From assembly GCA_964553615.1 (NCBI GenBank), contig CAZKMA010000021.1, positions 4,402 to 68,401 of the forward strand: 64,000 bases of DNA, read 5' to 3'. Below the pieces are notes generated by a model that was given only the letters and a program-made list of their open reading frames with translations, made no database searches and had not been told where the DNA came from. This document shows positions 11,266 through 54,650 of the stretch, piece by piece. Origin of the DNA: an uncultured Spirochaetales bacterium. Its GTDB lineage: Bacteria > Spirochaetota > Spirochaetia > DSM-27196 > DATKUC01. Both the position numbers and the translations under genes were made by a program. The stretch's first letter is position 1; each line of letters begins with the position of its first letter.

Positions 11266-12966
11266 ATGAAACGAATCGCAGTGCTGTTGTTCTGTTTGGT
11301 TGCGCTGTCGTTTTCGTCCTTCGCCCAGGCGAACGGCTCGTCCGACATCACCAATTTCGCACTCGACTGGGGAGTAAACAGTGCAAACTCAGTGCTTCCC
11401 TTGCCGGAGACGGCGTACAGTTATCTCTATCCGGAGACAGCGTACCGCTACAATCCGAGCGTTCTTACCGATGTGAGGCGCGTGTACATCATGCCACATG
11501 TATACCTATCCGCGAATCACAATCAGCCCACCTACACCCGGCGCGATGCCACGATCGGCGCTCTCGGGGGCACTGAGACCACCACCAGCACCGGCCGGCA
11601 AATCGTACCGGATGCAACAGCCTTCATGCCGATCAGCAGTACGATATTTTCCGGGATCTCGGCCAGTTATACGAACAGAGGCGGAGAGACTACCGTGGTA
11701 GACGACCGGTACACTTCTGCCACGTCGAGCATTACCACCGTAAGCGGGAAGTCGCTTACCAGCGGATTCTCCGTACAGCCGTACTTCGCAGCAAAGCTCA
11801 GCGGTCTTGACATCGGTTTTTCGCCGCTGGTGGTCTACCAGAACTCCCCCGGGGACAAGGTGTTCAATACAACAACCGATGCCGCGGCGAATGGCGGGAA
11901 GACCTACTACACTGCCGGTGCAGGGGCAAGCCACCCGACAAGCACAAATATTCAACTCTCTGGAACCATCGGTGCCCGGAAGAGGACGGATGCACTGGAC
12001 ATCGGACTCGCATTCAATGCATCCTACCGCAGCTCCGACAAATCCAGTGTGTGGTATGCGGCAGATACCACCGGGAACACCTTTGCGGATACGATTGTGA
12101 CGGGTCAGAGTTACTACACGAACACGACGTGGGGTCTGGGAAATGCAGCATACGCCAATATGGACAAGGGAACATCCCTGAGTCTTGCGGTAACCCCGAG
12201 TGTTGTTTACACGGTGTCACCCGCGCTGAAGATCATCGGGATGGTGCAGTGGCAACCATACAACACGGTCCGGACACAGCAGTACCTGCGCACGACGGCG
12301 ACCGACAGGAGTGATTATCAGGAACACCAGACCTACGGTTTGTTGAACCTTGTTGCGGTGGGCGGCATCGAGGTCGTTCCGTTCGGCGGTGCGTCTCTCC
12401 GCGTGGGAATTGGATATACCTCCAGTAACTGGGAGAATCTGATCGCCGTTCAGACCAGCGCGGCGGGAACAAGTACGTTGACCGCGGGCAATCCCGGTTA
12501 TCCGGAGTTTGCACTCGGTGCGCAACCCGACAATCAGGTCGTTCAGAACGCGGGCAACTCAGATGCGTACGCGTCCAATGCAATTCTCCTTCTGACCGGA
12601 TTCCGGTGGGACATTACGCCGCGAATTACCGTCTTCAGCCGACTGGGAGCGACCCTCGAGTTCAAGAAAATCATCTATCGCGTCTTCAACACGAGCGACA
12701 ACAAAGTGTGGGAGGAGGTTTCTCCGTCAACTGATTTCTCGCTCGGTGCCGACCCTCTGCTTGGTGTTGCGGTGAAGATATCGGACAATGCTATCATTTC
12801 TCTCAGCGCACCAAGTGGCACGGGGAATATTTCAGTCTCGAGTCAGACGATCGGAGACGGCATTCCGCAGACGGGGGGAACCGCGACGACGACGACCACG
12901 ATCGACAGCACGACCTCCAGGAGTGGCGACTTTACCGTAGACTTGAACTTCATTCTCGGACTCTGA
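11266..12966 (+). CDS. secreted outer-membrane beta-barrel/porin-like protein (566 aa)
   Basis: Signal peptide MKRIAVLLFCLVALSFSSFAQA. The protein is rich in Thr/Ser/Gly/Asn/Tyr with alternating amphipathic stretches and no long hydrophobic helices. The family is not identified. Confidence 0.6.
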   Translation: MKRIAVLLFCLVALSFSSFAQANGSSDITNFALDWGVNSANSVLPLPETAYSYLYPETAYRYNPSVLTDVRRVYIMPHVYLSANHNQPTYTRRDATIGALGGTETTTSTGRQIVPDATAFMPISSTIFSGISASYTNRGGETTVVDDRYTSATSSITTVSGKSLTSGFSVQPYFAAKLSGLDIGFSPLVVYQNSPGDKVFNTTTDAAANGGKTYYTAGAGASHPTSTNIQLSGTIGARKRTDALDIGLAFNASYRSSDKSSVWYAADTTGNTFADTIVTGQSYYTNTTWGLGNAAYANMDKGTSLSLAVTPSVVYTVSPALKIIGMVQWQPYNTVRTQQYLRTTATDRSDYQEHQTYGLLNLVAVGGIEVVPFGGASLRVGIGYTSSNWENLIAVQTSAAGTSTLTAGNPGYPEFALGAQPDNQVVQNAGNSDAYASNAILLLTGFRWDITPRITVFSRLGATLEFKKIIYRVFNTSDNKVWEEVSPSTDFSLGADPLLGVAVKISDNAIISLSAPSGTGNISVSSQTIGDGIPQTGGTATTTTTIDSTTSRSGDFTVDLNFILGL

Positions 12967-26903: not shown

Positions 26904-27731
26904 TTATCTGACGAGTGCAGACAGGAGTGCCGCTATCACGGCGCCTGTCGCGCAACTCGCAATATTCACCACGTCGTTGTTCACGCCTGATAGCCCGCGG
27001 ATACGTATGTTCTTTGTGCCATCTCCACGGGTTTTTCGTTCGGTTATTCTGCCGGTGGATTCATCCCGGTACGTCGCCTGGATGGTGGCACCGATCACGC
27101 TGTCCACGATTGAGCCCGCGAAACCACTTCCTGTAACAATTCCCACAATCAAGAGGTCGCGGGGCCGGAACGACCAGCTGTTCGTCGCGAGGAGTCCTAT
27201 TCCGTAGATGAGGCCGATGAACAGGGCGCCGAGGAGCGCCGCGACTGTTCCGAATGCCGTTACTCCACCGGACATTCCGGCGGGAACGGCGCGGCCGGAG
27301 ATTATGGACACGGGACGTTGCCGGGAAAGCATTCCAATCTCCGTGGCCCAGGTGTCGGCGTTCGCCTCGGCAAACGATGCGGCAAGTGCGGCGAGCCATA
27401 TGGTGTTGCCGCTCAGCGCGTAGATTGTTGCGGCAAGGAACCCGATGCCGCCGTTCGCCATGACCTGCAGACTGTCTCTGCGATCGCCTTTTTCAATCAT
27501 GACCGCAGACGATTCCTTCCGTGCCCTGCCAATCCTGCTGAGAATCGAGGAAGAGAGGAAGAACGCGCCGAGGACAGTCCACGCCGACCAGCCGGAGAAT
27601 ATGAGAATCCCGGCGCTTACGAGGAATCCGACTGCGGCTCCTCCCGCGGTAACCGCCTTTCTCCAGTATGCGCCTGCGGCCAGCAGAAGATTTACCGCGA
27701 CGATCGTTACAAATGAAACTGGCGATAGCAT
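26904..27731 (-). CDS. DUF92/TMEM19 family membrane protein (VTE6 phytyl-phosphate kinase family)
   Basis: Polytopic Gly/Ala-rich protein with the DUF92-like blocks ...FAEANADTWATEIG... and ...GVNNDVVN.... Its start overlaps the upstream kinase gene's stop by 1 nt. Confidence 0.65.
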   Translation of the reverse strand: MLSPVSFVTIVAVNLLLAAGAYWRKAVTAGGAAVGFLVSAGILIFSGWSAWTVLGAFFLSSSILSRIGRARKESSAVMIEKGDRRDSLQVMANGGIGFLAATIYALSGNTIWLAALAASFAEANADTWATEIGMLSRQRPVSIISGRAVPAGMSGGVTAFGTVAALLGALFIGLIYGIGLLATNSWSFRPRDLLIVGIVTGSGFAGSIVDSVIGATIQATYRDESTGRITERKTRGDGTKNIRIRGLSGVNNDVVNIASCATGAVIAALLSALVR

Positions 27732-28414
27732 CAGACCCTCGCCAGGTTGAACAGCACGGTGGTCAGAATGGGCACGGTCAGATTGTCCAGGCCGAATGGT
27801 GTCAAAACCTCAATAGCGGTGGCAGTTGCCGCCACTTTGACCGATGTCAGAATGATTGAGTCAATTCCGCCGGCGAAGGAAAAGACCGAGAGTACTCCGA
27901 TTGATACGAGGAGGGATGCCAGAAACATGGCAACCGTTCCGCGAACAGATTTGAAGGTCCCAAAACCGAAGACTGTGAATCTCAGCCTGGAGCTTCTCCT
28001 GCCGATCAGCGCCGCCATTCCGTCTCCCCATCCCATGATCAGGACTCCGAGAGCGCCGGTATAGACAGGGAATACTCCTCCGAAAGTCAGGAATACCAGC
28101 ACGAGAAGGGAAACCGGATAGTAGATTGTGCCGAGACTTGCACGTGCCGCCTCGGAATCCAGTGCGGAAAACAGAGGCCGTTTCAGCGCGAACAGATTGA
28201 ACGCAATGAAGAACAGCGGGCCAATCGCCGCCACCCACGGTTTGTGGTGGAAGAGCATTGCAATGATCCACCAGTGTGCAACTCCAATGTGAACGATCTT
28301 CCGTCCCGTGTCGCCATCTATCTGATTTCGGTGGATGAGAATTTGAACGAAGCCGAGAAGAGAAAATATGAAAACAAATGAAACGAGGATGCCAAGAATG
28401 TCACGCATACCCAC
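27731..28414 (-). CDS. CTP-dependent polyprenol (phytol/dolichol) kinase family membrane protein (VTE5-like)
   Basis: Polytopic. RKIVHIG and the C-terminal MGWGDGMAALIGRR motif are typical of the phytol kinase/dolichol kinase/CDS-related family. Confidence 0.7.
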   Translation of the reverse strand: MGMRDILGILVSFVFIFSLLGFVQILIHRNQIDGDTGRKIVHIGVAHWWIIAMLFHHKPWVAAIGPLFFIAFNLFALKRPLFSALDSEAARASLGTIYYPVSLLVLVFLTFGGVFPVYTGALGVLIMGWGDGMAALIGRRSSRLRFTVFGFGTFKSVRGTVAMFLASLLVSIGVLSVFSFAGGIDSIILTSVKVAATATAIEVLTPFGLDNLTVPILTTVLFNLARV

Positions 28415-29220: not shown

Positions 29221-29649
29221 ATGGCATTCATGAAAAGACGCAGTAGCCGATCGGATGAGCGGGCGCGTTTGATCGAGCGCGGATTTCGACTGCGATCGCT
29301 CGACATTCTTGCAATTGCCCTGGCGCTCGGTGTGGTTGTGCTCTTTTCCGTAAACGCGTACACCGGATCAGGAAACAGCAGCGAGGTAATTGTCCAGGCG
29401 GATGGGAAGGACTTTCTCTATCCGCTCAATCAGGATACCGAGTTCAAGGTAACCGGTCCCATCGGAAAAACTACCATTCAGATCAAGAACCATTCCGTCC
29501 GCGTTGTTGATTCGCCCTGTCGCGACAAGATCTGCATTGCCGCGGGGTGGCTCTCTCACACCGGTCAGTGGACTGCCTGTCTTCCCAATCGTGTCTTTGT
29601 CAGAGTTGAGGGTGGAAAGCCGGCCACGGTGGATGCTCAGACCTTCTGA
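29221..29649 (+). CDS. NusG domain II-containing protein (DUF1312-like), N-terminal TM anchor
   Basis: A TM helix (ILAIALALGVVVLF) is followed by ...IVQADGKDFLYPLNQD...IKNHSVRVVDSPCRDKICI..GWLSHTGQWTACLPNRVFVRVEG, the C-x3-C...C pattern of NusG_II proteins found next to flavinylation genes. Confidence 0.7.
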   Translation: MAFMKRRSSRSDERARLIERGFRLRSLDILAIALALGVVVLFSVNAYTGSGNSSEVIVQADGKDFLYPLNQDTEFKVTGPIGKTTIQIKNHSVRVVDSPCRDKICIAAGWLSHTGQWTACLPNRVFVRVEGGKPATVDAQTF

Positions 29650-29785
29650 TCCGACCGCCCTTTGACGTCTGGGCACACGCAGTTGCGGACCTGTCTTTCA
29701 GCACTATCATCCTTTTTGTAAGCAATCTCAATTGCATTTCACCTGGTTACCTCCATGCCGCAGTCAACGTCCATCTCGAAATGGT

Positions 29786-29814
29786 TTGACATATGCCGAG
29801 AAACAGGATAGGAT
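29786..29814 (+). promoter_or_regulatory. sigma70-like promoter of the FMN_bind gene (TTGACA-17 nt-TAGGAT)
   Basis: Consensus -35 TTGACA at 29786-29791, a 17-nt spacer and TAGGAT at 29809-29814, about 45 nt upstream of the ATG. Confidence 0.55.
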
Positions 29815-29859
29815 AAAATTATACCCAATTCACATCATAGCTTACCACGGGAGGAGAAT

Positions 29860-30693
29860 ATGAAGCGGCTAATGGTAGTCATGCTGTTGCTCGCAGTCGC
29901 ATTTGCGGCGTTTGCGAACGGCGAGAAGGAGAAGGGCGCTATCGGCTCTTCTGGGGCCCTGAAGGACGGAAGCTATTTTGCGACCTACACGACCGCAGAC
30001 AATCACGGCTGGCAGCCGTTCATGCGGATCGAGGTTGCCGGAGGTAAAATCGCTTCGGTTGCATACAACTATGTGAGTCCGGACGGAAAGATGTTCAAGA
30101 CTCAGGACAATCAGTACAACACAACCATGCTGAAGTTTGCCGGAACGAATCCTGAGAAGGCATACCCGGAGCTTGAAAAGCGGATAATATCCGCCCAGTC
30201 CGGCAAGATAGACGCGGTAACCGGGGCTACGCACTCGAGTGAAACCGCCATGGAGCTTGCTTCCGATCTTGTTTCTCGCGCCGGGACAGGAAATACCGCC
30301 GATCTGGTTCTGCCTATGACGGGAATGTATACGGCGGAAGACAAGCCGGACGAGCACGGCGGGTGGATCGGTCATCTTGAGGTGACATTCGGCGATCAGG
30401 GGAAGGTCACGAAGGTGGTCTACGACGAGGTCAAGAAAGAGAATAACAAGATTGTCGCCTACAAAAGCAAGGACATGGAATACGAGAAGAACTTCAAGGC
30501 CAAGAGCGGCATCAGTCAGGGAGAAGCTTACACCAGGCTGAGTGCCGAGCTGACGGCGACCGCCAAACTGAATACCGTTGATGCGGTCACGGGTGCCACA
30601 GGAACGAGTGAGCGGTTTAACGCGCTTGTGGAAAATATCAAGATGCAGCGGACAGGTGTTGCGCCTTCGGCAATAAAGGCGATGCTCAAGTAG
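29860..30693 (+). CDS. secreted protein with two FMN_bind domains (PplA-like flavinylation substrate)
   Basis: Type-I signal peptide (LLAVAFAAFANG). There are two repeats, each containing the ApbE target motif D-A-V-T-G-A-T (DAVTGATHSS at 30211-30240 and DAVTGATGTS at 30580-30609). Confidence 0.85.
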   Translation: MKRLMVVMLLLAVAFAAFANGEKEKGAIGSSGALKDGSYFATYTTADNHGWQPFMRIEVAGGKIASVAYNYVSPDGKMFKTQDNQYNTTMLKFAGTNPEKAYPELEKRIISAQSGKIDAVTGATHSSETAMELASDLVSRAGTGNTADLVLPMTGMYTAEDKPDEHGGWIGHLEVTFGDQGKVTKVVYDEVKKENNKIVAYKSKDMEYEKNFKAKSGISQGEAYTRLSAELTATAKLNTVDAVTGATGTSERFNALVENIKMQRTGVAPSAIKAMLK

Positions 30694-30719
30694 CCTGGAA
30701 TTGCTCCGCAGAGATCGCC

Positions 30720-30769
30720 ATGGCCGTTGTCCTCCGATGTCCTGCACCGGAGGCAACGGCCATTCTTTC
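30720..30769. terminator. long hairpin between convergent FMN_bind and apbE genes (probable bidirectional terminator)
   Basis: atggccgttg(t)cctcc ... ggagg caacggccat forms a ~15-bp stem with one bulge, followed by tctttc on the + strand. Confidence 0.55.
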
Positions 30770-30788
30770 GGCGTGTGTTCTCAGACTC

Positions 30789-31925
30789 TCAGTTTGTTAC
30801 GTTGTCCGCCTTTTCTATCTGATCAATGGTGGAAACGGGGGGCGTATAATTCGGACCGGCTGCTGCGGTGGAAATATCCTCGATGTGGTAATCGGAGTTG
30901 GTGAGGGTGAACTTCCCATCCAGGCCGGGAGTGTAGTAGACCTTCTTGTTGTCGGTCACAAATATGGCATCGACACCCTTCATGTCACGGATCAGTTTAT
31001 AGCCATTTTCAAGCCCAAGCACGAATACCGATGTCGAAAGTCCGTCACAGATCATGGATACGTTGCTGTAGATCGTGGTGCTGGTCAGATGGTCCTGCAC
31101 CGGATAACCTGTCTTCGGGTTGATAATGTGGTGATACATGACTCCGTTCCTGATGAAGTAACGTTCGTACGGTCCCGAGGTAACGACCGACATATTTGTT
31201 GCGTTAACGATACCGAGGTAGCCACCGCGCGGGGCAAACGGTGTCTGGATTCCGATGCGCCAGGGCTTCCCGTCTGGTTTCGCGCCCATTACCAGGATGT
31301 TGCCGCCGAAATCGAGGATGGCGTGTTTGACCCCTTCCTTGATGAGAATCTGTTCAGCCTGGTCTGCAGCGTATCCCTTGGCGATGCCACCCAGATCGAT
31401 TCCCATCCCTTTCTTCTCCAGATACACGGAGTGATCGGCTTCATTCAATTTTATCCAGTGCCAGTTCACCAGAGGAAGCAGTTTCTTGATCTCTTCCGGG
31501 GATGGAAGTTGTTCATGATCGGTGCCGATGCCCCATAGTTTTACGATGGGTCCGACCGAGATATCGAAGGCACCGTCAGTCAACTTGCTGAATTCGAGTG
31601 CCGTCTTTATTACGTCGAAGACGTCTGGGGTTACCTGTACCGGTTTGATGCCGGCATTCCTGTTTATTTCGACAACTTCGCTGCTGTTTCCTTCCGTTGT
31701 CATGCGGTTATGAATGTCGCGCACGCGGGCAAACGCTTTTTCGAGAACCGAGGGGTCTACCCGATCGTACACGGTCATGGTAATGGTGGTGCCAAGAAGC
31801 AGTTCCGTGCGGGAAAATGGCTTCGTGGATGTCCTGCTGCCACATCCAGTGACCAATACCAGAGTGAGGGTAGCCACGCCCAGCAGCGCAGCCGTTGTCC
31901 AGCGAAACGGTGTTACTCTGTTCAT
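30789..31925 (-). CDS. apbE: FAD:protein FMN transferase (ApbE/Ftp), lipoprotein
   Basis: Lipobox LVLVTGC. ApbE blocks are present (TMTVYD...RDIHNRMT...GAFDISVGPIVKLWG..., GIAKGYAADQ, VVTSGPYERYF). It also has a ~40-aa C-terminal extension. Confidence 0.9.
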   Translation of the reverse strand: MNRVTPFRWTTAALLGVATLTLVLVTGCGSRTSTKPFSRTELLLGTTITMTVYDRVDPSVLEKAFARVRDIHNRMTTEGNSSEVVEINRNAGIKPVQVTPDVFDVIKTALEFSKLTDGAFDISVGPIVKLWGIGTDHEQLPSPEEIKKLLPLVNWHWIKLNEADHSVYLEKKGMGIDLGGIAKGYAADQAEQILIKEGVKHAILDFGGNILVMGAKPDGKPWRIGIQTPFAPRGGYLGIVNATNMSVVTSGPYERYFIRNGVMYHHIINPKTGYPVQDHLTSTTIYSNVSMICDGLSTSVFVLGLENGYKLIRDMKGVDAIFVTDNKKVYYTPGLDGKFTLTNSDYHIEDISTAAAGPNYTPPVSTIDQIEKADNVTN

Positions 31926-31938
31926 GATAGAACTATTA

Positions 31939-32029
31939 GTACCATATTTATCGAATTGAGGTCAATGTATTACTCTTTTAGCAAGTAAAAAGTGATAACT
32001 GACTTGCGTTAATTCGATAAACATGGTAC
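31939..32029. promoter_or_regulatory. 19-nt inverted repeat pair (GTACCATATTTATCGAATT / AATTCGATAAACATGGTAC) in the apbE-ndh divergent promoter region
   Basis: The arms at 31939-31957 and 32011-32029 match at 18/19 positions as reverse complements and are separated by 53 nt. Each arm overlaps the spacer and -10 of a predicted outward-facing promoter. Confidence 0.6.
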
Positions 32030-32091
32030 GATAATTTTATACCGAAACATCACCATCTTTTTGGGAAACCAAAATCAGCGGAGGCCGCAGT

Positions 32092-34269
32092 ATGGCAGAG
32101 AAGACACGTATTGCTGTGTTAGGAGCCGGTTACGCCGGCATAGCTGCTACGAAACTGCTCTACAAGAGGTACAAGAAGAACCCCAACGTAGAGATCAGTA
32201 TTATCGACCGGAACCCGTACCACACCCTCATGACGGAGCTTCACGAAATTGCCGGGTCCAGAACCGAGCCTGGGGCAGTTCAGGTGAGCCTGGCGAAGAT
32301 CTTCGGCGGGAAACGCATGAAGGTCGTCATTGACGAAATCGATACGATTGAGTTCGAACAGAACAAACTTGTGTCGAAATTAACTGAATACCCCTACGAC
32401 TATCTCATCATCGGCGCCGGCGCTGAGCCGGAATTCTTTGGAACGCCCGGTGTCCAGGAGCATTCCTTTACCTGCTGGTCCCTGGAGGATGCAATTCGCA
32501 TTCGCGTCCACGTAGAAGACATGTTTCGCGAGGCAGCCAAGGAGCCGAACGAGTCGAGGCGCAGAGAACTGCTGACATTTGTACTGGCTGGGGCGGGGTT
32601 TACCGGCGTTGAGCTTGCCGGAGAACTTCTCGAGCGGCGCGATGTGTTGTGCGAGCAATATCATATCAACCCCAAAGAGGTCCGGGTCGTCATTGTTGAA
32701 ATGAAAGACACGATCCTGCCAATTCTGCCGGAATGGCCACAGAAGAAGGCTGAAAAGTACCTCCAGAAACGTGGCGCAGAAATCATGCTCAATGCTCCGG
32801 TAGCGGAGGCTTCAGAGGGTTCTGTACGGGTTGCCGGCGATCACGACCTCGAGATCCGTACCGAAACCTTTATCTGGACCTGCGGAGTTCACGGGTCCGA
32901 GTTCACTTCGAAGATTGAGCTGACCAAGGGGAACTGTTCGCCTGACCACGGAGCGGTTGCTTCAATCGAGGGTATTCACGGCATGGCCGGATGCCATTTC
33001 GACGACGACGAACGGTATGTCGTCGGAGAGCGCGGTCGGATCAGTGTAAACAAATACTGTCAGTCCGTGGACTTCGACAACGTCTATCTCGTCGGGGACG
33101 TCATGTGGTACGTTATTGGCGACAAGGTCGTGCCGCAGATAGTCGAGACGGCGTTGCAGTCAGGAGAAGTCACTGCCAGGAATATCATCACGGATATTGA
33201 GGGTGGTGAGAAAGAGGGCTTCAATCCGAAGTACCACGGATTCATGGTTTCAATCGGCGGGCGGTATGGTGTAGCTCACGGCATGGGGATGTCGTTTTCC
33301 GGGTTCATGGCCATGTCTGCAAAGCACCTCATTAACCTGCATTATCTGCTCGGACTTGCGGGAATTAACGCCGTGTGGGAATACATGCAGCACGAGTTTT
33401 TCACAATGAAGGACCGGCGCAGTTTTATCGGTGGACACCTGTCATGGAAGATTCCGTCCTATTGGGCCTTTCCGCTTCGATTGTGGCTCGGCGGAAAATG
33501 GCTTTACGAGGGAATCAAGAAGGTCACCGAAGGCTGGCTCAATCCCGGCAAGGAGGGACTCGCGCACGTATGGTCAGGAGCCATTCGAATGCCTGGTGTG
33601 AGTTTTGCTGCCGAGGCAACGTCCGCAGCAACGGCTGCGACGGGGGCAGCGGCGGGACACGTTGCGCAGGCGGCAACGAGTGCTGCGGCAAATGCGACCT
33701 CGGCAGCGACGGCGGTTGCACAAGCTGCACCGGCAGCCGCTCAGGCGGCGGCTGACGCAACATCGGCAGCAACTGGGGCAGTAGCCGGCGCGGTAGCCGG
33801 TGCGGCACACACTGCCGCAGCTGCGGCCTCCTCCTACGGGCAGGCACTGAGCGGCCCATGGGGCGTGTACACCTGGTTTGCCCACAATGTCCTCAGCGCT
33901 TCGCCGCTGCTGGCGTTTCTTCTGCAGGCCGTCGTTGTCATAGTTGAGATCGGCCTTGGACTTGCGTTCGTTGGTGGAGCCTTCACCTGGCTTGCCGCTG
34001 TCGTATCCATTCTCATTGGCGTAATGTTCATCGCCTCAGGATGGGGAAGTCCGGAGCTGCTCTGGTACATGTTCGGCGCTCTCGTCATGATGGGTGGTGC
34101 CGGGCGCGCTCTCGGCCTCGATCACTGGATCATGCCGTGGCTGAAGGGCTGGTGGAACGGTACCCGGTTTGCCAAGCGCACCTACCTCTACACCGATGAA
34201 CCGCACGATCGATGGAACGGAAAGCGAGCAAGTCGACCGCAATCCAACATTTCTGTGTCATCACGATAG
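32092..34269 (+). CDS. ndh: type II NADH dehydrogenase (NDH-2) fused to a C-terminal DoxX/DoxD-like membrane domain
   Basis: Two Rossmann motifs (IAVLGAGYAGIA and FVLAGAGFTGVELAGEL) and the NDH-2 C-terminal blocks up to ~aa 430. These are followed by WLGGKWLYEGIKKVTEGW, an Ala-rich linker and then ...VEIGLGLAFVGGAFTWLAAV...MMGGAGRALGLDHW, which is DoxX-like. Confidence 0.8.
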   Translation: MAEKTRIAVLGAGYAGIAATKLLYKRYKKNPNVEISIIDRNPYHTLMTELHEIAGSRTEPGAVQVSLAKIFGGKRMKVVIDEIDTIEFEQNKLVSKLTEYPYDYLIIGAGAEPEFFGTPGVQEHSFTCWSLEDAIRIRVHVEDMFREAAKEPNESRRRELLTFVLAGAGFTGVELAGELLERRDVLCEQYHINPKEVRVVIVEMKDTILPILPEWPQKKAEKYLQKRGAEIMLNAPVAEASEGSVRVAGDHDLEIRTETFIWTCGVHGSEFTSKIELTKGNCSPDHGAVASIEGIHGMAGCHFDDDERYVVGERGRISVNKYCQSVDFDNVYLVGDVMWYVIGDKVVPQIVETALQSGEVTARNIITDIEGGEKEGFNPKYHGFMVSIGGRYGVAHGMGMSFSGFMAMSAKHLINLHYLLGLAGINAVWEYMQHEFFTMKDRRSFIGGHLSWKIPSYWAFPLRLWLGGKWLYEGIKKVTEGWLNPGKEGLAHVWSGAIRMPGVSFAAEATSAATAATGAAAGHVAQAATSAAANATSAATAVAQAAPAAAQAAADATSAATGAVAGAVAGAAHTAAAAASSYGQALSGPWGVYTWFAHNVLSASPLLAFLLQAVVVIVEIGLGLAFVGGAFTWLAAVVSILIGVMFIASGWGSPELLWYMFGALVMMGGAGRALGLDHWIMPWLKGWWNGTRFAKRTYLYTDEPHDRWNGKRASRPQSNISVSSR
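33607..33834 (+). repeat. Ala/Thr/Ser low-complexity coding tract inside the ndh fusion gene
   Basis: Translates to AAEATSAATAATGAAAGHVAQAATSAAANATSAATAVAQAAPAAAQAAADATSAATGAVAGAVAGAAHTAAAAASS. The nucleotides are GCN-rich with reiterated gcagc/gcggc units. Confidence 0.8.
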
Positions 34270-34320
34270 TCTGCATTGTAGAACCCGGAAAATCTTAGTA
34301 CATTACATAACGGGAATCAT

Positions 34321-34346
34321 GCGGCCGGAATCCTCCGGCCGCTTTT
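34321..34346 (+). terminator. Rho-independent terminator after ndh
   Basis: Perfect 9-bp stem gcggccgga / tccggccgc with loop atcc, followed by TTTT. It lies only 38 nt upstream of the next ATG. Confidence 0.8.
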
Positions 34347-34384
34347 AGCAAATACGTGGCACACTGCTGCGGACGGGATGGAGA

Positions 34385-35512
34385 ATGACGCACTTCTGGG
34401 ATGACTTCCCGGCTATTCAACATGATCTGGAACGTGTCCATGATGTCATTCTGGACAATGTTCGCAGCCGGAACGTGACTATCACCCGCGCATTGACAAA
34501 TCTTGCGAATCGGAACGGAAAGTTGCTCCGGCCCGGGTTCGTGCTGTTGAGCGCTCGCCTGAAGGGCGACCTCATGAACGGAAATGACGGCAACGGGACG
34601 ATGGGCAATTTCGTGGAAAATGGCGATTTCGTCGGAAACGGCGGTTTCGTTGGAAACGGTCATGGATTTTCGGCCGAAGCAGCGGAATCCGGTCGTGGTG
34701 CCCGCACAGTTGCCGAAATACGGCCACTTCCGGAGAAGATCTACAAAATTGCCGCGTCCGTCGAGATGCTGCACATGGCGACCCTCATTCACGACGACGT
34801 GATAGACGAGGCCAACAACCGCCGCGGTCAACCGACGGTTCACGTCGAATACGGCAAGAAAGAGGCCATTCTGATGGGTGACTACCTCTTCAGCCGGACC
34901 TATCGGCTTCTTGCCGACAATACCAGCATCGAGAACGCAAAACGGCTTGCTCTGGTCGTGAGCCAGATTGTAGCCGGCGAAATCGATCAGTCTATTCCCG
35001 GCGAGCAGATCAGCTACGGACCGCGAACCTATATTCGCCGAGTCGTCGGAAAGACTGCCACCCTCATAGCCGATAGCTTCTATCTCGGAGCTTCGGAAGC
35101 CGATATGGGCCTTGCCCGGAGTACCTATCTCAGGCGGATTGGATACAGCATCGGGATGGCGTTCCAGATAATCGACGATATTCTCGATTTCACCGGTTCG
35201 GCCGATGTGCTCGGGAAGGCGCCGGGTTCCGACCTCCGTCAGGGAGTTGTGACGCTGCCACTCATCTACGCAATGCGCGCAAACGGCAAGGACGTTATCT
35301 GGAAAAGACTCTACACCCCGGAGAGGCTTACGAGTTCCGACTTGACCGCAATTATCGAGGCAATAGACCGGGAGGGCGGGTTCGCCATGGCCCGGGACAA
35401 AGCGGAGCAGTATACCCGCCGTGCTCTACGCCAGATCGCGTTTCTCCCACGCGGCGAGAACAAAGACGTACTGGCAGCGGTGGCCAGAAAGCTTCTCGAT
35501 CGTACCTACTGA
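34385..35512 (+). CDS. long-chain polyprenyl diphosphate synthase (hepta/octaprenyl type) with Gly/Asn/Phe repeat insertion
   Basis: FARM LIHDDVIDEANNRRG and SARM FQIIDDILDF are both present, as is KLLRPGFVLLSARL. A ~50-aa insertion precedes the FARM helix. Confidence 0.9.
   Translation: MTHFWDDFPAIQHDLERVHDVILDNVRSRNVTITRALTNLANRNGKLLRPGFVLLSARLKGDLMNGNDGNGTMGNFVENGDFVGNGGFVGNGHGFSAEAAESGRGARTVAEIRPLPEKIYKIAASVEMLHMATLIHDDVIDEANNRRGQPTVHVEYGKKEAILMGDYLFSRTYRLLADNTSIENAKRLALVVSQIVAGEIDQSIPGEQISYGPRTYIRRVVGKTATLIADSFYLGASEADMGLARSTYLRRIGYSIGMAFQIIDDILDFTGSADVLGKAPGSDLRQGVVTLPLIYAMRANGKDVIWKRLYTPERLTSSDLTAIIEAIDREGGFAMARDKAEQYTRRALRQIAFLPRGENKDVLAAVARKLLDRTY
34604..34675 (+). repeat. in-frame 18-nt tandem repeat (3 good copies + 1 degenerate) inside the polyprenyl synthase gene
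   Basis: ggcaatttcgtggaaaat / ggcgatttcgtcggaaac / ggcggtttcgttggaaac / ggtcatggattttcggcc encode GNFVEN GDFVGN GGFVGN GHGFSA. Confidence 0.85.
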
Positions 35513-54170: not shown

Positions 54171-54539
54171 ATGGTACGAGAACACGGGGATGGGCGCCGG
54201 CGGCGGCACCTTGATTGGCAAAGCCGCGGAATCGGCGTGAAAATTGGAATTATCATTGCAGGGATCTGCGCAGCCGGAGGGTTCTTTGTCCTTTTCGGAT
54301 ACGTGGTAGTGTGGCTCTGGAACTGGTTGATGCCGGCTATCTTCAATCTCCCGGCTATCGGTTTCTGGCAGGCATGGGGGCTCCTTGTCCTTTCGAGCAT
54401 CCTGTTCAAAGGCCATCCATCGGCAAATCAGTATCGCCATGACCGACGCCGCAAGCGGGCGCTTCGGGAGCGCCTCCACGACTTCGAGAACAACAACCGG
54501 CCGGAAGATGGGATTGCCGGAGCGGACGGTGTGGTCTGA
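54171..54539 (+). CDS. small membrane protein (2 TM, basic termini) downstream of the ECF sigma; possible non-canonical anti-sigma
   Basis: The ATG at 54171 is preceded by GGAGGAGGAG. The TM helices are IGIIIAGICAAGGFFVLFGYVVVWLW and FWQAWGLLVLSSILF. The ATG at 54156 is an alternative start. Confidence 0.55.
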   Translation: MVREHGDGRRRRHLDWQSRGIGVKIGIIIAGICAAGGFFVLFGYVVVWLWNWLMPAIFNLPAIGFWQAWGLLVLSSILFKGHPSANQYRHDRRRKRALRERLHDFENNNRPEDGIAGADGVV

Positions 54540-54590
54540 CGGCGGTGCACGTCTGTCCGTGGTGGCTCGGATCGCTTCCGGCGATTCCGA

Positions 54591-54650
54591 GCCGGCGGCT
54601 ATCGAAGCCGGCGGCAATCGAGCCGGCGGCTATCGAAGCCGATGGCGGCG
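54591..54650. repeat. 15-16-nt tandem repeat, 3 full + 1 partial units (gccggcggcWatcga[a])
   Basis: The units are at 54591-54606, 54607-54621 and 54622-54637, with a partial unit at 54638-54650. They lie in the convergent gap between the membrane protein and rluA-family genes. Confidence 0.8.

Follow-up and report, generated by a model that had tools for sequence, protein, structure and literature searches.

The window analyzed in this study is a 64-kb stretch of DNA (64,000 nucleotides of contig CAZKMA010000021.1, from an uncultured Spirochaetales bacterium) that includes a gene for a long-chain-type polyprenyl diphosphate synthase, which lies beside genes for an Ndh2-like flavoprotein, an ApbE-family transferase, a secreted FMN-binding protein and a membrane-anchored NusG_II-domain protein (Table 1). 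Between two of its conserved motifs the synthase has an insertion of about 50 residues, part of which is encoded by in-frame 18-nt tandem repeats, and our analyses addressed the position, the distribution and the probable significance of this insertion.

The open reading frame (ORF) of the synthase is uninterrupted, and its N-terminus (MTHFWDDFP) is as in homologs. The initial annotation, which was made from the letters of the DNA, had read the product as a polyprenyl synthase, and this was borne out by the Pfam model polyprenyl_synt (PF00348), which matched residues 117-325 with 186.4 bits (cutoff 27; E = 7e-55). The top NCBIfam model was that of HepT (TIGR02748), but its 223.6 bits fall under the equivalog cutoff of 456.55, and identity with the HepT equivalog was ruled out on that basis; the next models, those of solanesyl-, hexaprenyl- and nonaprenyl-diphosphate synthase, were every one below their own cutoffs. 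The top sequence match in the PDB was Bacillus subtilis HepT (9kp1_B, 8.9e-48), with plant and cyanobacterial solanesyl-diphosphate synthases and Mycobacterium tuberculosis Rv0562 as further relatives, and the top-matching enzymes overall were hepta-, solanesyl-, nona-, octa- and decaprenyl-diphosphate synthases. An AlphaFold2 (AF2) model, computed with an alignment of 118 homologs as input, had a mean predicted local distance difference test (pLDDT) score of 88 and a predicted template modeling (pTM) score of 0.87. Foldseek searches with this model returned OsSPS3 (SPS3), HexB and HepT at a probability of 1.00 and target-normalised TM-scores of 0.86-0.93, and the protein is accordingly modeled with the all-helical isoprenoid synthase fold.

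In addition to the GKxxRP motif and the first and second aspartate-rich motifs (FARM and SARM), the synthase has the substrate-binding RRG at residues 146-148, K278 and D283, all of them at invariant or nearly invariant columns of the 118 homologs. Since all of the family-invariant residues are present, the two positions ahead of FARM that bear on chain length (A132/T133) are small and the core of the AF2 model is confident, the synthase seems to be an intact enzyme of the long-chain class and would be expected to make a product of C30 and above. The annotated neighbours (22700 to 50045) do not include a HepS small-subunit partner. A minus-strand ORF that overlaps the gene (34295-34843) was without support and was disregarded, scans for promoters and terminators within the gene were at or under shuffle expectation, and a terminator-like match inside the 18-nt repeat was at chance level (1 observed against 1.5 expected).

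Around the insertion the translation reads KGDLMNGNDGNGTMGNFVENGDFVGNGGFVGNGHGFSAEAAE / SARLKGDLMNGNDGNGTMGNFVENGDFVGNGGFVGNGHGFSAEAAESGRGARTVAEIRPLPEKIY, which matches the peptide given in the initial annotation, and the insertion itself is DLMNGNDGNGTMGNFVENGDFVGNGGFVGNGHGFSAEAAESGRGARTVAEI. Its size became apparent from two comparisons. In the alignment with B. subtilis HepT, query residues 58 to 118 correspond to chain residues 85 to 93, so that HepT has about 7 residues where the window synthase has about 59. In addition, the spacing from the end of GKxxRP to the His/Gln preceding FARM was measured over all 160 fetched loci: it was 33 amino acids in 104 of them, and all fetched homologs fell within 32-45 amino acids except for those of one small clade. 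That clade is a long-spacing group of the Spirochaetia, in which the spacing is 85 amino acids in the window protein and its identical copies, 81 in L001 and L084, 91 in L085 and at least 137 in L002. Both comparisons uphold the claim of an insertion of about 50 residues after the KLLRP helix, and with it the view that a loop of this kind is unusual in the family.

The distribution of the extra residues was also apparent from the homolog alignment (A1). Most homologs, of about 321 amino acids, have no extra residues there. A sub-clade of the Spirochaetia has approximately 10-20 extra loop residues together with a conserved LPxKIY where the FARM helix starts, and 47-57 extra residues were found only in the window protein and in P0002, P0003 and P0004. 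Judged from these sequences, the insertion is restricted to one small Spirochaetia clade and is as such lineage-specific, as the initial annotation had supposed, and not a universal and invariant feature of a large group. Separately, an unrelated homolog of 342 amino acids (P0071) has its own Gly/Pro/Ala-rich insert of about 20 amino acids, GGGECGPGPGAGGDKGRPEAGAGEGAS, at the same turn between helices C and D, which suggests that this turn tolerates low-complexity insertions more widely.

Within the insertion, the three units of the tandem repeat encode GNFVEN (34604-34621), GDFVGN (34622-34639) and GGFVGN (34640-34657), all in frame. Tandem Repeats Finder (TRF) reported positions 34604-34659 with a period of 18, 3.1 copies, 84% matches and a score of 63, a score equalled or exceeded 3 times when the 64-kb window was dinucleotide-shuffled 100 times (approximately 0.03 per window). 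When the 18-nt unit was searched for with up to 3 mismatches, 2 adjacent occurrences were found against 0.11 expected, and 2 or more were found in none of the 100 shuffles. The initial annotation described three near-identical units followed by a degenerate fourth. Three in-frame units stand, although near-identical is generous for pairwise identities of 13/18, 14/18 and 16/18 nucleotides (72-89%); the fourth, GHGFSA, was rejected because its 5-6/18 nucleotides of identity to the other units is the chance level. The repeat is a genuine triplication, moderately decayed, of three units rather than four. We also considered whether the GxFVGN hexapeptides form a left-handed beta-helix (Hexapep, [LIV]-G-x4) and rejected this, given no Pfam match at E <= 10, predicted coil in the AF2 model and only three hexapeptides, which would make a single coil of such a helix.

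Variation within the lineage was judged from look-up of the exact protein and from the size of its cluster. The exact 375-amino-acid protein was present on at least five contigs, three of which, from separate samples (Logan ERR11523667, Logan SRR11829268 and JGI 3300036937), were compared with the window at the DNA level; they were 99.9-100% identical to it and carried the same repeat, with a few single nucleotide polymorphisms (SNPs) elsewhere in two of them. The 90% protein cluster of the window synthase is a single sequence among about 15 billion proteins, with no length variant, and scans of metagenomes and genomes returned no further members of the window's own lineage. On these assembled sequences, the repeat appears to be old and fixed in its lineage. 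It would also be a poor substrate for slippage today, because exact matches in register 18 extend over no more than 8 nt, compared with 25 nt in the array of L002 that is described below.

Several lines of evidence indicate that the insertion is probably an intrinsically disordered loop under almost no sequence constraint. The AF2 model has a helix at residues 48-66, coil from 67 to 116 save for one four-residue helical turn (97-100), and a helix at 117-140, with pLDDT values of 39-55 across residues 71-110. The inserts of the long-insert proteins consist of 75-88% disorder-promoting residues without conserved charge: their net charge spans -5 to +4 and their aromatic residues number 4, 0, 1, 1 and 0, the four being the Phe residues of the window insert only. 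Identity among these proteins is 9-27% in the insert versus 68-77% in the core (9-18% and 69-77%, respectively, for the window protein against its sisters). Even two members of one 90% cluster, P0166 and P0167, differ by substitution at 17 of 49 insert positions versus 19 of 322 core positions (Fisher p = 1e-7). No Pfam family matched the insert, even at E <= 10, and a phmmer search of 1.84e9 representative proteins with the insert alone returned itself and two weak, repeat-inflated matches to SprB/PKD and cadherin-type adhesins, which we judged to be compositional. A foreign origin of the insert was also considered and rejected for want of a compositional signal (GC content 0.55 versus 0.57 in the rest of the gene); only the GC content at third codon positions is lower, at 0.53 in the insert versus 0.68 in the rest of the gene.

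Repeat expansion of the loop was encountered in relatives of the window lineage. In a metagenome-assembled genome (MAG) of the Spirochaetales (L002), a different in-frame repeat lies at the same junction: GCGAGGATGCGCGGAGACGGT, encoding ARMRGDG, in 3.2 copies with 95% match, followed by a 100-N scaffold gap and then by about 2 more copies (L002 6169-6370). The assembly had broken inside the array, and the protein call (P0007) was truncated to 254 amino acids. A protein of 422 amino acids from an independent JGI metagenome (P0165, locus L166) falls into the same 90% cluster as the L002 protein, and its array (L166 1351-1535; 21 nt x 8.8 copies, 92% matches, TRF score 307) encodes nine A[RK][MI]RGD(G) heptads and, in them, nine RGD tripeptides. 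Protein P0004, the catalytic body of which is 92% identical to the L002 protein, yet has a single ARMRGD at the array site, and another 21-nt indel sets the two apart farther on in the loop. The loop is short in a third lineage (P0006, locus L165), where it includes AATGGA-AATGGA-AACGGC (codons AAGAATGGAAATGGAAACGGC), which encodes NGNGNG. This resembles the NGNDGNG leader of the window insert, and Gly/Asn-rich, microsatellite-like sequence may be a seed for loop expansions. No tandem repeats were found in the synthase genes or inserts of L001/L084 and L085.

Three in-frame repeats, with periods of 6, 18 and 21 nt, were thus found in one loop of one small clade, and on the evidence of these sequences the loop grows by in-frame tandem duplication in the relatives. 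It had been proposed that the copy number of the 18-nt repeat could vary between strains by slippage, which is half right: relatives do expand the loop (21 nt x 8.8 copies versus one copy at the same site, and the NGNGNG run), and no such variation was seen in the window lineage.

The location of the loop in the enzyme was argued from the AF2 helix boundaries alone. Residues K46 and R49 of GKxxRP are the isopentenyl-diphosphate-binding residues at the catalytic mouth, as established for the family. The helix at 48-66 starts by these residues and the helix at 117-140 ends at the FARM residues D137-D141; because the two flanking helices are antiparallel, running away from and then back to the active site, the loop between them would sit at the pole opposite the catalytic aspartates. 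It would lie some 19-24 helical residues from those aspartates, an estimated distance of roughly 30 Å at 1.5 Å per residue. In this predicted topology the loop cannot cap the mouth of the active site, an arrangement that had been raised for testing by structure prediction: it is modeled as disordered and at the opposite end of the FARM helix.

The same model, together with the alignment, also corrects the placement of the insert relative to the residues that determine chain length. The initial annotation had the insert abutting the chain-length-determining region and noted that residues of this region normally set product length. The insert ends at approximately residue 112-116 and the FARM aspartates start at 137, which is 20-25 residues, or about six helical turns, later, and the classical positions, A132 and T133, belong to the helix that follows the insert and are conserved. 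Both residues are of the small kind seen in long-chain enzymes, the aligned residues of B. subtilis HepT being A-S. As far as can be judged from the model and the alignment, the classical chain-length positions are therefore untouched by the loop.

The genes next to the synthase resemble a locus for flavin-based extracellular electron transfer (FLEET), the parts of which are Ndh2, PplA, FmnA/B, EetA/B and DmkA/B (PMC9888254, PMC8906456, PMC9973259). Of the window genes listed in Table 1, the NusG_II ORF is 30% identical to an ORF located between ndh2 and the synthase gene in L013, one of the Clostridial loci with this pair. By tblastn over 163 homolog loci, the Ndh2 C-terminal domain was found beside the synthase in 149, the NDH-2 domain in 134, ApbE in 47 and the FMN-binding protein in 24. 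The adjacency of ndh2 and the synthase gene spans the Spirochaetia and the Clostridia and is the same in short-loop and long-loop members, and because of this equal linkage the FLEET-like system would be expected to work without the insert. Among the annotated neighbours there was no DmkA (UbiA-type), EetB (PF07456) or FmnA, with the proviso that UbiA was not scanned for exhaustively in the window, and the EetB-like ORF of L013 had no tblastn match in the window. Based on synteny and family, the synthase is presumably the ndh2-linked, DmkB-type enzyme of a FLEET-like locus, and it presumably makes the polyprenyl tail of (demethyl)menaquinone and so serves quinone supply. In the closest sister species (69% identity; L001 4716-7113 and L084 1716-4113), ApbE is followed directly by the synthase gene and the long loop is kept; it appears from the gene order that ndh2 was lost or relocated in that lineage.

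Table 1. Features of the synthase gene and of the neighbouring FLEET-like genes in the 64-kb window (residue numbers refer to the synthase).
Feature	Position	Strand	Evidence
Membrane-anchored NusG_II-domain protein (probable EetA-like; EetA assignment inferred)	29221..29649	+	PF07009 1.7e-25
Secreted protein with two FMN-binding stretches (PplA-like)	29860..30693	+	PF04205 x2; NF041941 PplA 2.1e-40, 138.8 bits, cutoff of 325 not reached
ApbE-family FAD:protein FMN transferase (FmnB-like)	30789..31925	-	PF02424 8.1e-95; NCBIfam ApbE 1.1e-45, below cutoff
NDH-2-like flavoprotein with Ala/Thr/Ser low-complexity linker and C-terminal membrane domain (Ndh2-like of FLEET loci)	32092..34269	+	Pyr_redox_2 7.8e-29
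Long-chain-type trans-polyprenyl diphosphate synthase gene (DmkB-like), 375 aa	34385..35512 (incl. stop codon)	+	PF00348, PDB matches, AF2 and Foldseek
GKLLRP motif, residues 45-50, start of pre-insert helix (AF2 helix 48-66)	34517..34534	+	G45, K46, R49 and P50 invariant in 118 homologs
Lineage-specific insertion, residues 62-112, 51 aa (~52 aa above the family modal spacing)	34568..34720	+	Alignment gaps, motif spacing, AF2 coil
Gly/Asn-rich low-complexity leader NGNDGNGTM, residues 65-73	34577..34603	+	Sequence reading; compositionally similar NGNGNG in the P0006 loop
Three in-frame 18-nt tandem units, residues 74-91	34604..34657	+	TRF, unit identities, shuffle controls
GHGFSA, residues 92-97, unsupported as a repeat copy	34658..34675	+	5-6/18 nt identical to units 1-3
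PLPEKIY, residues 114-120, conserved junction, start of FARM helix (AF2 helix 117-140)	34724..34744	+	LPxKIY kept in all Spirochaetia homologs with any extra loop residues
A132-T133, positions -5/-4 before FARM, classical chain-length-determining	34778..34783	+	Nearly invariant in 118 homologs, irrespective of loop length
FARM DDVID, residues 137-141	34793..34807	+	D137 and D138 invariant, D141 nearly invariant (118 homologs)
SARM DDILD, residues 264-268	35174..35188	+	D264, D265 and D268 invariant (118 homologs)

The likeness to DmkB of Listeria monocytogenes and Lactiplantibacillus plantarum is that both are PF00348 enzymes of the long-chain type encoded beside an Ndh2 that ends in a special membrane domain (PMC9888254, PMC8906456), and that the window locus shares the ApbE/FmnB-like, PplA-like and NusG_II (probable EetA-like) genes; it is a likeness by synteny and family. 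The window host differs in belonging to a Spirochaetia lineage rather than to the Firmicutes, no DmkA or EetB homolog was seen beside the synthase (the whole window was not searched), and the synthase has a disordered insertion of 52 amino acids that about 150 fetched homologs outside the clade are without. With HepT, which is component II of a heterodimeric heptaprenyl-diphosphate synthase, the window synthase shares the fold, FARM and SARM and the small residues at positions -5/-4, but it is far below the TIGR02748 cutoff and no HepS partner was seen nearby. With the homodimeric long-chain synthases (OsSPS3, 9jqs; IspB, 3wjk; that of Thermotoga maritima, 1v4e; and Rv0562) it likewise shares fold and motifs, with TM-scores up to 0.93; the sequence matches to solved structures all start at query residue 107-123, however, and none aligns across the insert.

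Other observations at the locus concern the spacer and linker sequences. In the Ndh2-like protein, a linker (ATSAATAATGAAAG...GAVAGAVAGAAHTAAAAASS; 33540-33900) lies between the NDH-2 and membrane domains and includes a 12-nt in-frame repeat (33781-33805, by TRF). The two tblastn-matched Ndh2 domains are separated by about 250-500 nt, depending on the locus, which would make this a second FLEET protein with a variable low-complexity segment. A GC-rich hairpin at 34321-34346, GCGGCCGGA-atcc-TCCGGCCGC and then TTTT, is located 52 nt past the stop codon of the ndh2-like gene and about 40 nt before the start of the synthase gene. TRF called it as a 14-nt repeat and its T-run did not reach the threshold of the terminator scan, yet it looks like an intrinsic terminator, and the synthase gene may be transcribed separately or with attenuation. 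Further upstream is a minus-strand pair of genes for membrane proteins, a DUF92/TIGR00297 protein (26904-27731) and a polytopic protein of 227 amino acids without Pfam or NCBIfam match (27731-28414); a DUF92 gene is also found near the synthase in L001/L084. DUF92 includes the plant phytyl-phosphate kinase VTE6, and the two ORFs might be a pair of kinases for prenol salvage, close to the gene for a prenyl synthase.

We consider it probable that the insertion is a tolerated, near-neutral and disordered passenger loop that has been shaped by slippage, and that it is neither a determinant of product length nor a switch. A passenger is the most likely role because the loop is placed at the pole opposite the catalytic residues and because the catalytic and chain-length residues are unchanged. 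In the course of events that we propose, the short turn between the GKxxRP helix and the FARM helix would have become a loop of 47-57 amino acids in one small Spirochaetia clade, and of about 100 in one lineage, by in-frame tandem duplications that arose presumably from slipped-strand mispairing or unequal recombination. Being exposed to solvent and far from the catalytic site, the loop would tolerate such duplications, which would afterwards decay by point mutation, with the 18-nt triplication of the window representing a decayed trace and the 21-nt x 8.8 array a younger event.

Some observations weigh against a neutral passenger and speak for a selected, functional disordered arm, which would act in product exit, as a tether to the membrane, to Ndh2 or to a DmkA-type prenyltransferase, or in tuning chain length, with duplication adjusting its length and composition. 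The length of 47-57 amino acids has been kept in four lineages despite near-total turnover of the sequence, which could reflect selection for length or for disorder, and the junction motif RPLPEKIY is conserved. In the window insert the aromatic-aliphatic pair F-V recurs every six residues, in all three units, and is encoded with three synonymous Val codons (GTG/GTC/GTT); about half of the nucleotide differences between units are synonymous, in what are tiny numbers, and we regard the retention of FV as a faint hint of constraint. Moreover, chain length in long-chain synthases is limited by residues that line the tunnel from FARM toward the bottoms of the helices, and in the octaprenyl diphosphate synthase of T. 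maritima the chain-limiting residue, Phe-132, is at the bottom of helix F (PMC7839719, a review). The pole at which the AF2 topology places the loop is the one where long product tails would end, and a modest effect on product exit, release or length may follow.

We nevertheless regard a selected arm as unlikely. The inserts have no physico-chemical property in common, given the spread of their charge and aromatic content, and the FV motif is unique to the window lineage. A single ancestral insertion explains the similar lengths equally well. About 150 loop-less homologs share the ndh2 linkage and all of the catalytic features, so that the system needs no loop, while L001/L084 retain the long loop without an adjacent ndh2, and the AF2 model shows neither structure nor docking of the loop. 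Less likely still, in our estimation, is a bolder form of the same idea, in which the loop would be an arm maintained at a length of about 50 amino acids or more at the product-tail pole, where it would pass polyprenyl products on to a partner or the membrane, or would determine the extent of chain growth; recurrent in-frame duplication (periods of 6, 18 and 21 nt, with 1-9 copies between enzymes that are 92% identical) would then be a means of fast retuning, and the loop an evolvable ruler or tether.

That the 18-nt repeat is an active, hypermutable locus of the contingency type, with a copy number that varies between strains by slippage and gives rise to enzyme variants, appears very improbable. 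Classical loci of this type, the variable-number tandem repeats (VNTRs) and simple sequence repeats (SSRs), are near-perfect repeats in surface or secreted proteins and are polymorphic at the level of strains. The window repeat is like bacterial in-frame VNTRs and SSRs in being an in-frame tandem repeat within a coding region, with head-to-tail units, a period that is a multiple of three and signs of decay, and in the sister lineage another unit does differ in copy number at the same site (1 in P0004 versus about 9 in P0165) and its array did break a MAG scaffold. In the window, however, the units are decayed, matching at 13-16 of 18 nucleotides and with no more than 8 nt of exact register match, and one allele with one repeat count was found on at least five contigs, two of the three compared at the DNA level carrying SNPs elsewhere, with no length variant in the single-sequence 90% cluster. 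The host protein is a cytoplasmic biosynthetic enzyme and no surface antigen, and in-frame changes would not switch it on and off. As for the repeat or the whole insertion being an assembly artefact, or the gene a decaying pseudogene, repeats are prone to mis-assembly and the L002 scaffold gap lies inside such an array, but an artefact is excluded because independent samples and pipelines (Logan, JGI and NCBI/ENA) agree on the sequence and comparably sized inserts occupy this site in sister lineages, and with an uninterrupted ORF and every invariant catalytic residue in place we give a pseudogene practically no credence either.

Proteins are well known to evolve by in-frame repeat expansion in disordered loops, and both the enzyme and the type of locus are known. 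What appears to be new, on comparison of the sequences, is a repeat-expandable insertion of 50-100 residues in a long-chain prenyl synthase, placed at the turn between helices C and D and absent from the matched solved structures and from about 150 other homologs. If the loop is indeed a passenger, it offers a clean natural case of a tight inter-helix turn that became a long disordered loop, grew by duplication and then decayed. It would also follow that insertions of 50-100 residues can be accommodated at the distal pole of long-chain prenyl synthases, a property of use in protein engineering, for instance with tags or fusions. If instead the loop is functional, it would represent an unrecognised coupling of a soluble long-chain synthase to the membrane, or a means of tuning the length of the quinone tail. 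For annotation and assembly, the broken scaffold of the sister array and its protein call cut to 254 amino acids are a caution. The locus in addition documents a FLEET-like Ndh2/PplA/ApbE/DmkB cluster (29221-35512) in an uncultured diderm spirochete lineage.

Two other repeats were identified in the window. The one with the window's highest TRF score (90) is a 16-nt tandem repeat, AGCCGGCGGCTATCGA, at 54590-54641 (3.3 copies, 89% matches), which sits between convergent ORFs ending at 54539 and 54657 and which we regard as non-coding because its period is not a multiple of three. The other is a trinucleotide run, (CGA)x7.3, at 12884-12906, with a TRF score of 30.

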